Counted from the stretch's first letter, positions 2,082-58,701 are shown. The stretch is 64,000 bases of DNA from Bdellovibrionales bacterium GWB1_55_8 (GCA_001769835.1 MEPR01000025.1:5442-69441); one strand, 5' to 3'. A program made the numbers and translations. The notes: generated from the letters alone by a model not told the origin.

Positions 2082-4139
2082 ATGAATCGACTTGAAAAAG
2101 AAACGAGCCCGTATCTCAGGCAGCATCAGAATAATCCCGTGGACTGGTTTCCCTGGGGCGAGGAGGCTTTTCGCCTGGCGAGGGAAACGAACCGGCCGAT
2201 CCTCCTGAGTGTCGGCTATGCCGCCTGCCACTGGTGCCACGTGATGGCGCATGAGAGCTTTGAAAACGCGGAGATCGCCGCTATTTTGAACGAACACTTC
2301 GTCAGCATCAAAGTGGATCGAGAGGAGAGGCCGGAACTCGATCGAATTTACCAACCGGTCGCGCAGGTCTTCACCGGTGGCGGCGGCTGGCCTCTGACCG
2401 TTTTTCTCACTCCTGATCAAAAACCGTTTTTCGGGGGTACCTATTTTCCTCCTGAGGATAGCTACGGCCGGGCCGGGTTTAGACGCGTTCTCCTGGCTGT
2501 GCTCAATTCTTACCGTGATGATCCTGAAGGAGTCGCGAGGAGCTCAGGTCAACTCACTGAAGCGATTCTCGAAGCCGAAAATGGCATGGTCCGTGTACAT
2601 CCAGCTGAAGCAGGTGAGACTGTGAGGATACTCAGCGAGTCCGCCGCGAAAATTCATTCCTACATGGACCCGACTTTCGGTGGGATTGGGCGCGCTCCTA
2701 AATTTCCAAATGTTCCCATGCTGACGTTTCTCTGGCGATCGGGCCGGAGGGATGGCGTGATTCTTACACTTCGTCGAATGGCTGAAGGGGGGATCTTTGA
2801 CCAGCTCGGCGGCGGCTTCCATCGCTACGCCGTTGATGAAGCCTGGGCGGTGCCTCATTTCGAAAAAATGCTTTCTGACAACGGGCTTTTGTTGAAGTTG
2901 TACTCCGAGATCTTGCTTTCCGGCGCCTCCGAACTGAAGGAGGCCGACCGGGAGCTGTTTACTCAGGTCATCACAAGTACGGTGGATTATCTGCTTCGTG
3001 ACTTAAGATCTCCGGCTGGCACATTCTTCAGTTCGCAAGATGCTGATTCGGAGGGTGAGGAAGGTAAATTTTATGTTTGGACTGCGGATGATCTTTCATC
3101 CCTGGTTAAACGCGGGGATTTAAGCCAAGCGGAAGCCGCGATTGCGGCAAAACGGTTTGGCATCTCGGCAGCCGGCAATTTTGAACAAGGCAAGACGGTT
3201 CTTTTCGCTGCCAAGTCGTACGAGGCAATTGCTTCCGAACTTGAAGTGCCAGCGACAGAGGTTGAACGTCTGATGGAATCCGTGCGCAGGAAGCTTCTCA
3301 GGCTTCGATCCGAAAGGGTTTCGCCGCAGATCGATGATAAAGTCCTTGTCAGCTGGAACGCGCTCGCGATCAGCGGCCTTTCCTGGGCCTCTGGCGCGCT
3401 GTCCGTCTCGGGCGAGAGTTCCAAAGCACGCGTTGCTTATCAGGCGGCGAAGAAAGCCTATGACGCGCTCGTAACCGGTGCGGCGGGGCCGCATGCGGGC
3501 TCGCACCGATTGAGTGGAACCATTCAGCACGGGATTGCAAAAACAAACGCCACGCTCGACGATTACGCCTTTCTCACGGCCGCGGCCCTGGATCTGGCGA
3601 GGTGGTCTCCGGAGAGCGAGATCTCTGGTCTGATCGAACAGGCTCACGAATGGCTGACGATTCTATTTAATTCTTTTCAGGCCGATGCAGGATTCTACTT
3701 TACCGGGGACGATCACGAGACCTTGCTGTTTCGCCCGCGAGGACTGTTTGACTCCGCGATCCCGGCCGGTACGGCGGTAGCACTGGCAAGCGCGCTCGTA
3801 CTGGCTGAAATCAGCGGTAAATTAGACCTCCGTGCGCGTGCCGAGCAGCAACTCCGGCGAGTTCGACCGCTTGCGACTGGTAATCCCTCCGGAGGAGCTG
3901 AAACGCTTTCTACGCTGCTGCTTTATGAACTCGGTCCAGTAGTGGTATCCGGTCCCAATAGTCAGGATGTTTGCCGGAACGCTCACGTTTTTCGTAAAGC
4001 GAGCGCGAATGAATCTGGGGTGATCGTCTGTCACGGGTTTACTTGCGGAGCACCGCATCTCGATGCGGCATCCGCTTGGCGCGAGACGTCACGAAAGGTG
4101 ACTCTTGAATCGGCCACTGGCCGCCCGGCTGGCACATGA
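2082..4139 (+). CDS. Thioredoxin-domain protein, YyaL/Ssp411 (DUF255 + six-hairpin glycosidase-like) family
   Basis: N-terminal [21 protein letters not shown], [23 protein letters not shown] and LDDYA motifs. Confidence 0.92.
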
Positions 4140-4169
4140 CTGGCAGGGAGGGGGTCGAATGGGGGTTTT

Positions 4170-43691: not shown

Positions 43692-43707
43692 AGCAAGGGG
43701 GGTGCCA
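43692..43707 (-). promoter_or_regulatory. Sigma54 (-24/-12) promoter upstream of the VWA lipoprotein gene
   Basis: Minus strand TGGCAC-CCCCC-TTGCT, a perfect consensus match with correct spacing, about 70 nt upstream of the ATG. Confidence 0.75.
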
Positions 43708-54132: not shown

Positions 54133-55416
54133 TTGCTTCGGCTTATGTTTGAATCTCCTATCATGGAAAACAGTCGCACGCCCGATGTTCCACTTCTCTT
54201 TTTTTCTCGCGGGCTCAGGCTCTTCGGGTACGGAGCGGTCTCGATCATCCTCATGTTGTATCTCCTTGAGGTGGGACTGTCGGAGAAAGAGGTTGGACTG
54301 CTTTTCAGTCTGACCTTGCTTGGAGATACGGTGATTTCGCTCGGATTGACCACCCGGGCGGATCGCTGGGGCCGCAAGCGAACGCTCCTGCTAGGGGCGG
54401 CGCTGATGATCCTGGCGGGTGTGATTTTCGCCCTTACCCAGAATTACGTGTTTCTCGTGCTTGCCGCAATCATTGGCGTAATCAGTCCGAGCGGAAACGA
54501 AGTTGGACCTTTCCTTTCCATCGAGCAGGCGTCGCTGACCGAACTGATCACTCCTACTCAAAGAACGAGGCTTTTCGCCTGGTACAATCTCACGGGATCG
54601 TTTGCCACTGCTTTCGGAGCTCTGGCATCAGGATTCGTCATCCGATTCCTTCAGCATGATCTGGGGTGGGCTGCGGTTCAAAGCTACCGGGCTGTGGTGT
54701 TGGGGTACGCCCTTCTAGGCGGGTTACTGCTGATTGTTCTGTCGCGGCTGTCTCCGGCCGTGGAGGTGCATGGCGGGAAACCTAGAGTTGAAGCTTCGCG
54801 ATCAATTCGTCAGAACTGGCATGGACTCAGTCATTCAAAACAGTTTGTCCTGAAGTTATCGTCCCTGTTTTCGCTTGATGCGTTTGCGGGTGGATTCGTC
54901 ATCCAAAGTTTTATGGCTTTTTGGTTCCATACGAAATTCGGTGTGGAGCCCGCGCTTCTTGGAAGCATCTTTTTCGGAGCTAATATCCTGGCTGGCGTTT
55001 CGGCCCTGTTGGCGGCACGAGTTGCTGCCCGCATAGGCCTGATCAACACCATGGTTTTCACGCATCTGCCCTCGAACGTTCTTTTGATTCTGGTTCCGCT
55101 CATGCCGAACCTGCCACTTGCGATCACGGTGTTGCTGCTTCGTTTTTCCATTTCGCAGATGGACGTTCCGACTCGGCAATCCTATACGATGGCGGTGGTT
55201 CACGCCGAGGAGCGTTCGGCGGCTTCAGGCATTACCAATGTTGCCAGGACCGTGGGCGCTTCGCTCGCGCCGCTCTTTGCGGGGCCGCTGCTGGCGGTAC
55301 CCGCGCTCATGAGCGTGCCGTTTTTTATCTGCGGCGGACTCAAGATCGTTTACGACATCGCTCTTTATCGAGGCTTCAAAGCGATTCGCCCTCCTGAGGA
55401 GCAGGCGACGTCGTGA
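54133..55416 (+). CDS. Major facilitator superfamily transporter
   Basis: 12 TM segments, ADRWGRKR motif A, SQMDVPTRQSY; start may be the ATG at 54163. Confidence 0.93.
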   Translation: MLRLMFESPIMENSRTPDVPLLFFSRGLRLFGYGAVSIILMLYLLEVGLSEKEVGLLFSLTLLGDTVISLGLTTRADRWGRKRTLLLGAALMILAGVIFALTQNYVFLVLAAIIGVISPSGNEVGPFLSIEQASLTELITPTQRTRLFAWYNLTGSFATAFGALASGFVIRFLQHDLGWAAVQSYRAVVLGYALLGGLLLIVLSRLSPAVEVHGGKPRVEASRSIRQNWHGLSHSKQFVLKLSSLFSLDAFAGGFVIQSFMAFWFHTKFGVEPALLGSIFFGANILAGVSALLAARVAARIGLINTMVFTHLPSNVLLILVPLMPNLPLAITVLLLRFSISQMDVPTRQSYTMAVVHAEERSAASGITNVARTVGASLAPLFAGPLLAVPALMSVPFFICGGLKIVYDIALYRGFKAIRPPEEQATS

Positions 55417-55608
55417 TAAGATAGCAGAGCTTACAAGTCGGTTGCGGCGCAATAAGCGCAACGAATTCGTCGGATGATATGAGGCAGTCCCTCTCATTTC
55501 GAATGTAATATTTGCTCGATTAGAGGCCATAATGGCTCTTTTTGTCCCGTGATCTCCTGTGATCTGTTTTGCGCTCTCGAAATATATGCACTTTACGTTG
55601 GATTTCGC

Positions 55609-55624
55609 TGGCACAGCCTTGGCA
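55609..55624 (+). promoter_or_regulatory. Sigma54-like promoter upstream of the Cys-repeat gene
   Basis: TGGCAC-AGCCT-TGGCA: GG/GC at exact -24/-12 spacing, one mismatch; ATG about 40 nt downstream. Confidence 0.5.
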
Positions 55625-55662
55625 ATGGCGACCCGGTAAATTTTTTATCTTGGGGGAAATTT

Positions 55663-56154
55663 ATGATCGGATTCGGAGTTGGCCGGGTGGCGGTACTGAT
55701 CGGGTTGCTTTGCATGGCGAACGCTTTCGCTGAGGAAGTTTCTGATTCGGATTTATTATCAGCCATTGGATTCAGTAAAGCGGTGAGTGGACAAGCCTAC
55801 TGTCTAAGAAGCGGGCGCGCGGCCTACGAGTGCACCGGGGTGAGTTGGGGGCAAGGAGTGTGCTTGTCTTCGGAAGAGCGGAAATCTTATGAGTGCAGTG
55901 GTGTGGGAGCAGCAGAAGGGGTCTGCTTGTCGGGTGACAGGGCTTCCTACGAGTGCGTGGGGGTGAGCCTTGCACAGGCGGTTTGTCTCTCTGGCGATCG
56001 GCCGTCCTACGAATGTGTGGGAGTATCCAGACTCAGCGCCATTTGTCTGAGCGGAGGGCGTCCCTCCTACGAATGTTCAGGCATCAGGTCGCTCGATCAG
56101 GCGATGTGTCTTCAGGAATCCGAGAGGCCTTCCTATGAGTGCTCGGGCCTCTAG
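55663..56154 (+). CDS. Secreted Cys-rich tandem-repeat protein
   Basis: Signal peptide (..ANAFA); six CLxxxRxSYECxG repeats. Confidence 0.8.
   Translation: MIGFGVGRVAVLIGLLCMANAFAEEVSDSDLLSAIGFSKAVSGQAYCLRSGRAAYECTGVSWGQGVCLSSEERKSYECSGVGAAEGVCLSGDRASYECVGVSLAQAVCLSGDRPSYECVGVSRLSAICLSGGRPSYECSGIRSLDQAMCLQESERPSYECSGL
55801..56151 (+). repeat. Six imperfect 60/63-bp tandem repeats
   Basis: Units start at about 55801, 55861, 55924, 55984, 56044 and 56107; conserved core tccta(c/t)ga(g/a)tg(c/t). Confidence 0.85.
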
Positions 56155-56165
56155 GCCCAGCCTGA

Positions 56166-56981
56166 TTATTCCACCCGTTCGCTGAAAGAAACGCGTTTGT
56201 CGCCCAGAATCACGGTGCTCCGGTAAGTCGAAGGGAAATTCGAGTTACAGGTGCCCGTATAGGTGGACACCAGCCGCGGACGATAGGAGTAGGACGTGGA
56301 TTGCGTTGAGCGCAGCGTCACCGAGTTCAGCGTCGCATTCGAGCTTTTCATCAGAAAGCCATAATGCGGCATGGTTCCGTTCGCGCTGATGAGATCCTGG
56401 AAGTAGTCCGTCACATCGAACGTCACCGTGGTTCCGTCAATATCACTGAGTACTGGCGTAAAAGCAGGATCGACGTCGCCTCCCGGCGTTGCCCAGGTGC
56501 CGCGGACCGCCGAGAAAGGGTGAGCCCTGGTCCAGTTCACGCTCTGCCACCAGGGGCCGGCCAGGGTGCTCAAGGAAAGTTTGTCATCCAGGCCGCCATT
56601 CGCATCGTCCTGGACATCGAGCACGAGTTTGGCGCTCGTGAGGTTCTCGGGGGTAACCACGTCATTGGAGCAGTCCAAAAGCTCTGCCATGATGTAAAGA
56701 GGCATGAAAAAAAGCTTCACGAAGGCATCGGCCAGAATGTCATCGACGCCTTTGTCGGGGCCATCTTTTTGAGTGGGGAGCTTCAGGATGATTCGTTCTT
56801 CGTCGGTGGCCGATTTCGAAACGCGCAGGTGATCCAGTGATGCGTGGTTACCAGGATCGCTGCTGCTGATATAAGTGTCGGTCTCAAGCGGCAGCGTTTC
56901 GGTGATGGTCATTTCGCCACAACCACTGATGACTGTGGCGAGCGCTACGCTGATCAGAATTTTGCGATTTAGAAGTGCCAT
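56166..56981 (-). CDS. Lipoprotein with DNRLRE/CBM96-like beta-sandwich domain
   Basis: Lipobox ISGC; DTYISS..P..N, LTSAKLVL, W..PGGD, FDVTDY, HYGFLMK, RPRLV. Confidence 0.72.
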   Translation of the reverse strand: MALLNRKILISVALATVISGCGEMTITETLPLETDTYISSSDPGNHASLDHLRVSKSATDEERIILKLPTQKDGPDKGVDDILADAFVKLFFMPLYIMAELLDCSNDVVTPENLTSAKLVLDVQDDANGGLDDKLSLSTLAGPWWQSVNWTRAHPFSAVRGTWATPGGDVDPAFTPVLSDIDGTTVTFDVTDYFQDLISANGTMPHYGFLMKSSNATLNSVTLRSTQSTSYSYRPRLVSTYTGTCNSNFPSTYRSTVILGDKRVSFSERVE

Positions 56982-57823
56982 CGGACCTCCCCGGTCATCA
57001 CTTTGCGAGCAGTAAGGTTTTCATTCAGATAAAAAGGTGCTTGGTAAAGGAATTCGACCGGATCGTTGTTTCGAACCGGATAAACCGCGGCAACGCGGGC
57101 CCAGATTTCGAACCCCGCCAGGTCCACGCCCGCGCCGATGCTCGGACGAAAAACGGTTTGTCGCGGGATGTGGTAGCCGAATTCCTTTGAAGCGATTGCA
57201 GCCGCACCCAGGCTGTACATCGAAAGCGCCGCTTCGCCCATGATCAGCGGAAGTTTGAGTTGAAGTGAGGGCCGCAGAAGATACGCCGTATCCCGTCCGA
57301 TCTTGGTGGGGAGCCCTTCAAGATCCGCGATATCGGATTTCGCGAACTCGATCATTTTGAATTCAAGTCCCGGCCTCAGAAATCCTGAGTGAGATGCGAG
57401 CCGTGCCACTGCGGCCCAACGCATATTTTGCATGAAGCCGCCGGACATCGGTGGCGCGAGTTGCCCGCTGTTCTCGATCTCCAGTCCGAGTTTGAGTGTC
57501 GCGTTTTTCAACGCGATCGCCGGTCCTGCTGAGACGCCGTACGCAGGATTCATGGTGTAAATGAGATGCGCAACGTGCGCATCGAGCCAAAAACCCGTAC
57601 CGTTATCGCCGCGAGGAGCTTTCAATAACTCGATCCCGAAAAGGATCGGTGGTCGCAGGTACCTGGCTTCAGAGTTGAGGGGCAAAGGATCGAAGTTCTC
57701 GATGACTGAAGACCCGGAGAAGGTCATCGTTGCGTTCAGCCCTGCGGTTTCGGATTCCGCATGAGCTGGATTATTTCCAATGATCAGGACAAGCCCGATC
57801 AGAACTGCAGCTTTCTTTATCAT
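56969..57823 (-). CDS. Outer-membrane beta-barrel protein
   Basis: Signal peptide (PAHA), alternating amphipathic strands, C-terminal aromatic BAM-type signal VRWHF; start at MIKKAAV (the ORF-track extension overlaps the next gene). Confidence 0.72.
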   Translation of the reverse strand: MIKKAAVLIGLVLIIGNNPAHAESETAGLNATMTFSGSSVIENFDPLPLNSEARYLRPPILFGIELLKAPRGDNGTGFWLDAHVAHLIYTMNPAYGVSAGPAIALKNATLKLGLEIENSGQLAPPMSGGFMQNMRWAAVARLASHSGFLRPGLEFKMIEFAKSDIADLEGLPTKIGRDTAYLLRPSLQLKLPLIMGEAALSMYSLGAAAIASKEFGYHIPRQTVFRPSIGAGVDLAGFEIWARVAAVYPVRNNDPVEFLYQAPFYLNENLTARKVMTGEVRWHF

Positions 57824-57876
57824 AGCCTTTAGTTCTACACGTGGGTTCGGGACATTGGAAGTGATCACGTAACGTT

Positions 57877-58701
57877 TTATAGCCACTTGAAAAGATCGAA
57901 GTTGAGCTGAAAGGTTTGCCGGCTTTGTGATTGAGCCGCGAGTTTCTCCACTTGCCGGATGAAATCCTGGTAGAGCGCCTTTACTCCGGCAAAGGTTGCC
58001 GCGTCGGCAGAGAAGGTTACCATAAACGAATGCTTTTCCTCTTCGGGGCAGGAGTGAACGCGCGAGGCGCTGAGCTGGCGGAGGATCGCCTGGTTTGCAC
58101 GCATTAAAGGATGGTCCGTGCTGTAATGGATCTTGCTTTGAAGCACACGGCCCAGGTGTTCGCGGTCTTCCTCGAGTTCGATGAAGCCAAGCTCGCTGAG
58201 TTTGCGAAGGATTTCCTTCAGCTTCGCAGGACTGATGCCGAGCAAGGCGCAAAGGCGCCTGGGATGATTCTGGTATTCGGGAATGTGCAGTGAAGCGTGA
58301 ACAATCGGACAGTAAGGATCAAAAAGGTACGCCATCTCCAGATTCAGTCGGCTGCTTTGGAATGTCTGTACATCGGCGCTGAGGGCTTTGGCTCTTCGGA
58401 CATGATCGATTTTTGCGCGCAGGTGTTTTTGTCGTAGAGGGTCATGGGAAGTGGCCAGGGATCTCAGAAGAAACAGGTATTCGGATTCCTCCGGCAGAAG
58501 TTCCAGGAGGCGCGACACGGTGAAAAGGTGATCCTCGTTCAAGTGCGTCTTTGGATCATTCAGCGCCTTCGAAAAGTAAGTGTATTGGACCGGGATTTTG
58601 GCCGCGAGCATCTTCAGCGAGAAGTGTTTTCGGGTGGCCGCGAGTTCTTTGATCCGTGCGCGGATAATGTCGCGATAGTTATCGTGCTGGTAAACATCCA
58701 T
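57877..58701 (-). CDS. TIGR02147 family (HTH + DUF4423) putative regulator
   Basis: MDVYQHDNYRDII, FSLKMLAAKI..QYTYFSKALN...HL HTH, winged-helix segment, TFS.D...F..VK...QDF..QV, FQLNFDLF terminus. Confidence 0.85.
   Translation of the reverse strand: MDVYQHDNYRDIIRARIKELAATRKHFSLKMLAAKIPVQYTYFSKALNDPKTHLNEDHLFTVSRLLELLPEESEYLFLLRSLATSHDPLRQKHLRAKIDHVRRAKALSADVQTFQSSRLNLEMAYLFDPYCPIVHASLHIPEYQNHPRRLCALLGISPAKLKEILRKLSELGFIELEEDREHLGRVLQSKIHYSTDHPLMRANQAILRQLSASRVHSCPEEEKHSFMVTFSADAATFAGVKALYQDFIRQVEKLAAQSQSRQTFQLNFDLFKWL

Follow-up and report, generated by a model that had tools for sequence, protein, structure and literature searches.

What would a bacterium do with a small exported protein built from six short repeats, each of which carries two cysteines? 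This question is raised by a locus of Bdellovibrionales bacterium GWB1_55_8, which we analysed as part of a 64,000-nucleotide stretch of one DNA strand (GCA_001769835.1 MEPR01000025.1:5442-69441), hereafter called the window. The interval 55609-56154 on the plus strand spans a promoter-like motif at its start and a stop codon at its end, and the repeat gene within it (55663-56154, +) encodes a product of 163 residues, labelled P0001. Our reading is that this product is a Sec-exported acidic protein in which six 20-residue units would form a small alpha-helical solenoid, and that, in the periplasm or as a secreted protein, it would serve as a multivalent, non-enzymatic scaffold that binds an extracytoplasmic target with a periodic or repeated structure, for example an envelope glycan or a protein surface. 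Taken as a whole, with gene, fold, disulfides, binding role and promoter all included, we give this reading a probability of roughly 0.55; its parts differ in strength and are discussed one by one.

Repeat architecture and selection

The N-terminus of the product, MIGFGVGRVAVLIGLLCMANAFA, shows the n-, h- and c-regions of a signal peptide and two AxA sites: an arginine at residue 8 is followed by a hydrophobic stretch at residues 9 to 19, with a windowed hydropathy of up to 3.1, and by ANA and AFA at residues 19 to 23. An equivalent N-terminus is common to all homologs in the alignment. We infer export by the Sec pathway, and cleavage probably takes place after AFA or ANA, leaving a mature protein of about 14.6 kDa that is acidic (isoelectric point (pI) of 4.6) and contains no histidine.

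The mature part carries six units of 20 to 21 residues, each with the pattern C-L-x2-3-x-R-x-[SA]-Y-E-C-x-G followed by about seven further residues. It contains 12 cysteines, and a 13th is found in the signal peptide. All 11 successive cysteine gaps measure 10 or 11 residues, a regularity that was matched by 0 of 100,000 shuffles of the mature sequence, the best shuffle reaching 7. The spacing and the Sec-type signal peptide are in line with the original prediction of an exported six-repeat protein, which had been made from the DNA sequence.

The units are 45 to 75% identical to each other at the protein level and 43 to 67% identical at the DNA level, with different codons at 107 of the 156 identical residue pairs between units, and no tandem repeat is detected in the DNA by Tandem Repeats Finder. 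Because the units differ so heavily at synonymous sites, the duplication is old and every unit has been maintained by selection at the protein level, which agrees with the selection proposed earlier. Comparing the repeat gene with the gene of its closest homolog (P0002), the proportion of synonymous differences (pS) is 0.81, which is saturated, and the proportion of nonsynonymous differences (pN) is 0.31. The cysteine positions are invariant or nearly so in alignments of 19 and of 41 family members.

Predicted structure and disulfide pairing

The AlphaFold model of the window protein, based on an alignment of 19 sequences, has a mean predicted local distance difference test score (pLDDT) of 84.7 and a predicted template modelling score (pTM) of 0.72, with values of 87 to 96 in the repeats. 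In this model, each unit is composed of one helix of 8 residues (..AQAVCL) and one helix of 3 to 4 residues at SYEC. The model of a longer form of the family, described below, is based on 41 sequences (pLDDT of 87.2 and pTM of 0.82) and shows the same helices together with a two-stranded beta-hairpin cap.

The Foldseek search of both models against the PDB returned nothing below E = 1, the best matches being designed repeat proteins with template modelling (TM) scores of 0.2 to 0.34. The best match for the window protein is a designed protein (E of 1.4 and TM of 0.34), and no Helicobacter Hcp or Sel1-like repeat (SLR) chain is listed. No match was obtained against viral structures. We consider it very likely that the repeat protein is what the models depict, a confidently predicted helical solenoid without a solved counterpart. 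The original prediction had offered a disulfide-stapled solenoid or a ring; the AlphaFold models and the logic of the sequence favor the helical solenoid, and the ring is not supported, as the predicted solenoid appears open as far as the secondary-structure output shows.

The distribution of cysteines along the repeat array suggests how they are paired. In every member, the first cysteine is a helix cysteine and the last repeat cysteine is a loop cysteine, and in the long forms a further helix, placed after the last loop cysteine, reads A-L-x-L and not I-C-L. Since a helix without a following loop cysteine has no cysteine, and since the array opens with a helix cysteine and closes with a loop cysteine, each helix cysteine would pair with the loop cysteine 10 residues downstream (Cys0 to Cys+10), giving six disulfides that lie within the units.

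The host genome also encodes candidates for the oxidation step. A 410-residue open frame (G000:C95:37916-39022, minus strand) matches VKOR and Thioredoxin_4, and we interpret it as a fusion of VKOR with a DsbA-like thioredoxin. C36:12242-12727 (+) holds a second DsbA-like gene, and DsbB was not found in the host genome. With the putative fusion and the second DsbA-like gene present, periplasmic disulfide formation should be available to the host, which apparently uses the VKOR route.

Known families and the zinc-knuckle match

No true family for the repeat protein was found in Pfam, NCBIfam, PADLOC, or PHROGs, and neither the phmmer search of PDB sequences nor two profile searches gave a match. 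Nine further family members yielded nothing credible in Pfam. The repeat had been described as unrecognised from the sequence, and sequence, profile and Foldseek searches agree on this point, with no curated family and no solved structure.

One match to a characterised family does score above its threshold and formally counts against the original prediction: with a cut-off of 27, the window protein reaches 31.1 bits for Pfam zf-CCHC_3 (Pfam ID PF13917). We regard this match as an artefact. None of the matching stretches (0) passes alone, and the total is made up of six weak partial matches, all confined to profile positions 10 to 22 of 41. The zinc-knuckle pattern C-x2-C-x4-H-x4-C is missing: there is no CxxC, the two cysteines of each unit lie 10 residues apart, and the mature protein has 0 histidines. 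The protein is also predicted to be exported, and the match is below the cut-off in other family members (18.4 bits). PF13917 is stored as a precomputed label for many members (P0005-P0010 and P0053-P0061). The mislabel is likely to spread as a wrong annotation, a hazard that comes from summing matches over repeats.

Other candidate families were rejected or not found. The EGF-like domain (Pfam ID PF00008) reaches 13.9 bits on the window protein (E of 0.069), below its cut-off of 21.5 bits, and is an artefact as well. Neither Sel1 (Pfam ID PF08238) nor TPR repeats are found in Pfam at E<=1, and the period is 20 to 21 residues and not 36. The CHCH/CX9C families have no Pfam match to the window protein; on a distant relative, the score is 13.8 bits (E of 0.057), which is below the cut-off.

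A rare family with short and long forms

The family was collected from large protein sets. The phmmer search of 5.8 billion clustered proteins gave 9 relatives, an exhaustive scan of 1.84 billion representatives gave 42 relatives at E<=0.001, and a profile search gave 36 matches, the phmmer E values to family members ranging from 1e-46 to 1e-20. Every named relative is annotated as "hypothetical protein", and our literature search found no paper on this repeat. Large leucine-rich repeat (LRR)-type proteins among the weak phmmer matches (P0029, P0030, P0037, P0041, and P0042) were rejected as chance matches to repeats or low-complexity sequence.

The closest relative, P0002, has 161 residues, 60% identity and the same layout, with the C-terminus ...CSGL. 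Both P0002 and the window protein end in ...YECSGL three residues past the last repeat cysteine, and we call this the short form. Most relatives belong to a long form of 200 to 245 residues, which is composed of a signal peptide, an N-cap helix, 3 to 8 units and a C-terminal piece of about 55 residues. This piece is a Trp-rich cap with the pattern WAWDxF..WxCRGxxTGxFAxxxKC..KxDxxWP, absent from the window protein and P0002; a search with this piece alone returned only proteins that also carry the repeat.

Across 199 units from 43 proteins, the consensus reads [TS]-[LI]-[GA]-[QK]-[GA]-I-C-L-[AS]-G-G-R-P-S-Y-[ED]-C-S-S-x, with Cys0, Leu+1, Gly+4, Ser+7, Tyr+8, and Cys+10 as the strongest positions. 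The window protein shows the family pattern throughout, namely, a signal peptide, an N-cap helix and 3 to 8 units of the type [IV]-C-[LM]-x-x-G-x-x-x-x-x-C with a period of 20. Distant short forms of 160 to 169 residues occur in other families of the phylum, and their loops read GKNSRTC, GRHSSVC, or GxxASDC, each being uniform within its protein.

The profile search of genomes from the phylum finds the family in 7 of 401, none of them among about 40 sister genera within the host's own family. A scan for the core motif, taken from a two-unit alignment, found a single other genome among 185,579 species genomes, a Bdellovibrionales metagenome-assembled genome (MAG). Some long forms come from beyond the phylum, one of them from Rheinheimera sp. 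UJ63. The family is thus rare and uncatalogued and, judging from the sequences collected, centered on Bdellovibrionota. The host genome carries a single copy of the repeat gene, and no paralogs were detected there by protein search, by profile search or by a regular expression for the cysteine period run over all six-frame open reading frames (ORFs).

Several further repeat arrays came up beside these members. One genome of the set encodes three tandem paralogs of a divergent short form (L017 1411-3102, on G344:C406), with 169, 167, and 167 residues, each of which has seven Cx9-10C units behind a signal peptide. A unit variant that is 22 to 24 residues long and has the pattern G-[YF]-G-[IL]-C-[ML]-A-A-G-R-x4-C is repeated about 8 to 20 times in three lipoproteins from other Bdellovibrionota, which have 691, 538, and 262 residues (L015 454-2529, L018 607-2223, and L013 1486-2274, respectively). 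The 691- and 538-residue lipoproteins share a C-terminal region of about 130 residues past the repeat array, and no Pfam model matches any part of the three. In the host genome, a 128-residue ORF on the minus strand of another contig (C57_-_2_7561; G000:C57, frame 2) shows the 12-residue period CSEGRAE(G/S)R(T/S)AG about six times, and it probably reflects repetitive DNA read in a wrong frame.

Comparison with known disulfide-stapled repeats

The nearest known design is the Hcp family, represented by Helicobacter HcpB and HcpC, whose Sel1-like repeats are bridged by disulfides (PDB ID 1KLX and 1OUV; PMC3851747). Repeat-protein disulfides of this kind are rare, with three cases known in 2008 (PMC2581425). 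The window protein resembles HcpB and HcpC in being, as predicted, a small Sec-exported bacterial protein composed only of tandem alpha-helical repeats, arranged as a solenoid with one disulfide per repeat (PMC2581425 and PMC3851747). However, Hcp repeats have 36 residues and two full helices, and their disulfides run between neighboring repeats, from the end of the first to the beginning of the second, whereas the unit of the window protein is 20 residues long and is predicted to contain a single 8-residue helix and a turn, and there is no sequence similarity. By period, by Pfam and by fold search, the window protein is not a Sel1 protein.

The middle repeat region of H. pylori CagY is also an alpha-helical tandem repeat with regularly spaced cysteines, thought to be stabilised by disulfides outside the cytoplasm (PMC2581425). 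Its motifs, in contrast, have 31 to 39 residues, are rich in Lys and Glu and belong to a very large type IV secretion protein, and no similarity to the window protein was detected. The twin Cx9C (CHCH) proteins of the mitochondrial intermembrane space share the Cys-x9-Cys spacing and have helices that are stapled by disulfides in an oxidising compartment. In CHCH proteins, both cysteines of one Cx9C motif are located on one long helix and are paired with those of a second helix. In the window protein, whose predicted helices have only 8 and 3 to 4 residues, one cysteine of each motif would sit where a helix ends and the other in the short turn that follows it. Beetle antifreeze proteins, with the 12-residue repeats of Tenebrio and Dendroides, offer a further parallel, in that a very short repeat does without a hydrophobic core and relies on a single disulfide for every turn; those proteins, however, are beta-helices with Thr ladders, whereas the window protein is predicted to be all-helical and is unrelated in sequence.

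Gene layout and genomic context

The longest ORF at the repeat locus opens at GTG 55549 and would encode 201 residues. The start that fits the evidence is ATG 55663, because the ribosome-binding site GGGGGA (55652-55657, +), read directly from the sequence, lies 5 nt upstream, the resulting signal peptide is a typical one and the closest homolog begins at the same point. The in-frame GTG was rejected, as it only adds a non-conserved extension and overruns the sigma54-like site. From the ATG onwards, and all on the plus strand, the gene encodes the putative signal peptide (55663-55731, residues 1 to 23), which is indicated by hydropathy and aligns with the signal peptides of the homologs, and the acidic N-terminal cap EEVSDSDLLSAIGFSKAVSGQAY (55732-55800, residues 24 to 46), with a short helix at residues 29 to 34. 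The repeat array consists of unit 1, CLRSGRAAYECTGVSWGQGV (55801-55860, residues 47 to 66), unit 2, CLSSEERKSYECSGVGAAEGV (55861-55923, residues 67 to 87), unit 3, CLSGDRASYECVGVSLAQAV (55924-55983, residues 88 to 107), unit 4, CLSGDRPSYECVGVSRLSAI (55984-56043, residues 108 to 127), unit 5, CLSGGRPSYECSGIRSLDQAM (56044-56106, residues 128 to 148), and unit 6, CLQESERPSYECSGL (56107-56154, residues 149 to 163, with the stop codon). Units 2 and 5 have 21 residues, and unit 6 ends three residues past the last cysteine, like P0002.

The repeat gene lies between a gene for an MFS transporter (+), which stops at 55416, and a convergent set of three minus-strand genes (56166-58701, -). A hairpin followed by a T-run (GGCCATAATGGCT and CTTTTTGTCC, 55525-55547, +) is found 3' of the transporter gene and, being terminator-like, would separate it from the repeat gene. 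The minus-strand set encodes a DNRLRE/CBM96-like lipoprotein of 271 residues, an overlapping exported protein without a family and a TIGR02147/DUF4423 regulator-like protein, the last of which agrees with a Bdellovibrionales host, given where its family occurs. The leader of the repeat gene has nothing credible in Rfam. With a GC content of 57%, and of 60% at third codon positions (GC3), the gene is similar to its neighbors, and since its composition matches theirs we see no sign of recent transfer. In two large protein libraries, the 163-residue product and near-identical entries are missing, though neighboring proteins of the window are present. One possible reason is that public annotation never included the gene.

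The neighbors in the window are not conserved with the homologs. Conserved synteny was absent in a further 40 genomes of the same family, and the MFS ortholog in one genome (G173) has other neighbors and no repeat gene. Short forms elsewhere adjoin clpB, an unannotated gene for an AAA+ ATPase-like protein (ClpX-like in our own reading), or infC. Every long form whose context was read (L004/L005, L007, L027, L028, L029, and L031/L032) has genes of mobile or defence type within a few kilobases. These are an integrase with a methylase and MvaI-BcnI restriction pair; RES, VbhA and GIY-YIG; three transposases with a DUF499/DUF2357/AAA_5 set; Fic; T5orf172 with XRE; and a type I-F CRISPR-Cas operon (cas3-csy1-4). 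The setting of the long forms in variable islands is a lead and does not amount to a function. Small genes upstream of two long forms were considered as partners and rejected, as they are unrelated to each other.

A probable sigma54-type promoter

The promoter-like motif TGGCACAGCCTTGGCA (55609-55624, +) has GG at 55610-11 and GC at 55622-23, the canonical spacing of a sigma54-type site. It matches 15 of the 16 positions of TGGCAC-N5-TTGCW, and the single mismatch is TGGC for TTGC, giving a -12 element of TGGCA. The site is located 38 nt before the ATG and past the terminator-like hairpin, and no sigma70-like site was found on the plus strand of the intergenic region. In the window, the pattern TGGCAC-N5-TKGCW was observed 3 times, compared to 0.11 expected; the two further sites are at 43692-43707 (-) and 4130-4145 (+).

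The host genome contains rpoN, with one Sigma54_DBD gene, and 25 stretches matching PF00158 activators, about 20 of which are full-length. Genome-wide, the pattern TGGCAC-N5-T[TG]GCW occurs 24 times, comprising 17 sites of the TTGC type and 7 of the TGGC type, for each of which we estimate a chance expectation of about 3.6 (roughly, not by computation). As we read the genome, 12 of the 17 TTGC-type sites closely precede ORFs whose first residues resemble signal peptides or lipoprotein signals (e.g., on C10, C11, C36, C57, C58, C64, C73, C83, and C87), and sigma54 may mainly drive exported proteins in this host. The sigma54-like promoter proposed earlier is thereby upheld as a good match in a genome with rpoN and many activators, and because it fits this local pattern, we regard the site as probably functional.

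Several observations speak against this part of our reading. The TGGC-type variant of the -12 element, with its 7 occurrences, is only about twice as frequent as the estimated chance number, and about 4 of the 7 are inside long ORFs; the site studied here precedes a gene, as do one or two more. The contig that holds the window (C25) carries no sigma54 activator gene. Finally, no sigma54-type site is found upstream of the closest homolog or at the short-form loci L010, L011, and L017.

A sigma54-type match at another locus of the family (L002) was discarded, as it lies inside a downstream coding gene. Further upstream of the repeat gene, we observed a direct repeat with a 10-bp period (TCCCGTGATC/TCCTGTGATC, 55545-55564), about 45 to 65 nt upstream of the -24 element, and a palindrome with 6-bp arms (GTTGCG-N10-CGCAAC, 55441-55462), about 160 nt upstream of it. 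Both are possible, if weak, candidates for regulator sites, or they are due to chance.

Proposed function and alternative explanations

In the mechanism we propose, each unit would combine a helix of 8 residues, which ends in I/V-C-L, with a G-G-R-P loop and a single helical turn that carries S-Y-E-C. One Cys0-Cys+10 disulfide would close each unit, a VKOR/DsbA-type oxidase making the six of them in the periplasm, and these staples would do the work of a hydrophobic core, for which the repeat is too short. The six R-x-S-Y-E loops would then be presented as equivalent contact sites along one face. Transcription would most likely start at the gene's own sigma54-dependent promoter at 55609-55624, driven by some activator.

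The binding role is suggested by what the family conserves. Only the cysteines, the glycine and the hydrophobic helix positions are universal across the family, which points to a structural frame with a row of contact sites and leads us to favor a binder. The loops of the window protein have been kept separately despite saturated synonymous divergence, and those of distant members differ from them and are nevertheless uniform within each protein, which is why we read the loops as equivalent contact sites. Multivalent binding is nonetheless a tentative assignment, and other observations weigh against it or against the model beneath it. The alignment under the model of the window protein is shallow, with 19 sequences. 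The conserved R, S, Y, and E residues could be purely structural, forming salt bridges between units and packing the tyrosines. No partner gene is shared among about 10 homolog contexts, and none of these contexts hints at a ligand.

The first alternative is a one-to-one protein inhibitor, or an immunity-type protein, that blocks a periplasmic hydrolase such as a lysozyme, a peptidase or a peptidoglycan enzyme. Small periplasmic repeat proteins act in this way in Bdellovibrio self-protection, and a small, exported and non-enzymatic repeat protein would fit the role. The family also has a patchy, accessory distribution, and one genome holds tandem paralogs of it, features often seen in conflict genes; its long forms occupy islands with toxin-antitoxin, restriction and CRISPR genes. 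We consider this alternative unlikely, however, as no conserved enzyme or toxin gene is adjacent in any of about 10 contexts and six near-identical loops suit a repeated ligand better than a single protein interface.

A more far-reaching version of multivalent binding is conceivable, though we hold it to be a long shot. The 20-residue unit would here be a new minimal disulfide-stapled fold, and the protein a multivalent cover or dock on a periodic envelope structure, which would either shield a receptor from phages or predators or attach the predator to a glycan of its prey; the family, with its short forms and with the capped long forms of the mobile and defence islands, would then represent a new class of extracytoplasmic conflict proteins.

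An exported, small and disulfide-rich product of an accessory gene in a predatory phylum could also be a secreted antimicrobial or a prey-directed, bacteriocin-like effector that acts through its stable, disulfide-rich body. This is improbable for a protein that is acidic (pI of 4.6) and neither amphipathic nor cationic, and that comes with no immunity gene, dedicated exporter or toxin domain. Even less probable is a multi-core precursor, a polyprotein or one resembling those of ribosomally synthesised and post-translationally modified peptides (RiPPs), whose six units would be cut into disulfide-cyclised peptides of about 11 to 20 residues. Six near-identical Cys-x9-Cys cores do stand in tandem behind a leader, but this leader is a Sec-type signal peptide and not a RiPP leader. 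The predicted fold is confident and continuous, the segments between the cores are its main helices, and the long-form array is capped by a domain that is predicted to be folded. Cleavage sites could not be recognised, and none of the contexts has a conserved protease or modifying enzyme close by.

Two further explanations are hardly credible. An ice-binding or antifreeze-type solenoid with a flat repetitive face would recall the beetle antifreeze proteins, in which every short repeat has its own disulfide (with Dendroides cited in PMC2581425), and the sole named genome match is a MAG labelled GL121_UP, which we only guess to refer to a glacier-fed stream; the protein is, however, predicted to be helical and not a beta-helix, it has no Thr or Ala ladder, and the family also occurs in Rheinheimera and in other samples. 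A zinc-knuckle or other metal-binding protein, suggested by the zf-CCHC_3 score and by the labels on relatives, is equally doubtful in view of the summed weak matches, the scores of other members and the predicted export into an oxidising compartment, and for the zinc-knuckle type the original suggestion of a metal binder is contradicted by the two cysteines per unit and the lack of histidine.

Implications

Multivalent binding by a disulfide-stapled helical solenoid thus continues to be the reading we prefer for the window protein. If the model is right, its units are among the shortest known helical solenoid repeats, with one disulfide per 20 residues. The protein would be useful for studies of repeat-protein folding and design, and it would be a cheap target for crystallography or nuclear magnetic resonance. 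The defence and mobile islands that surround the capped relatives give a testable lead on function. For the organisms themselves, the repeat adds a rare accessory family of apparently exported proteins to the predatory Bdellovibrionota, whose secreted repertoire is mostly unstudied.

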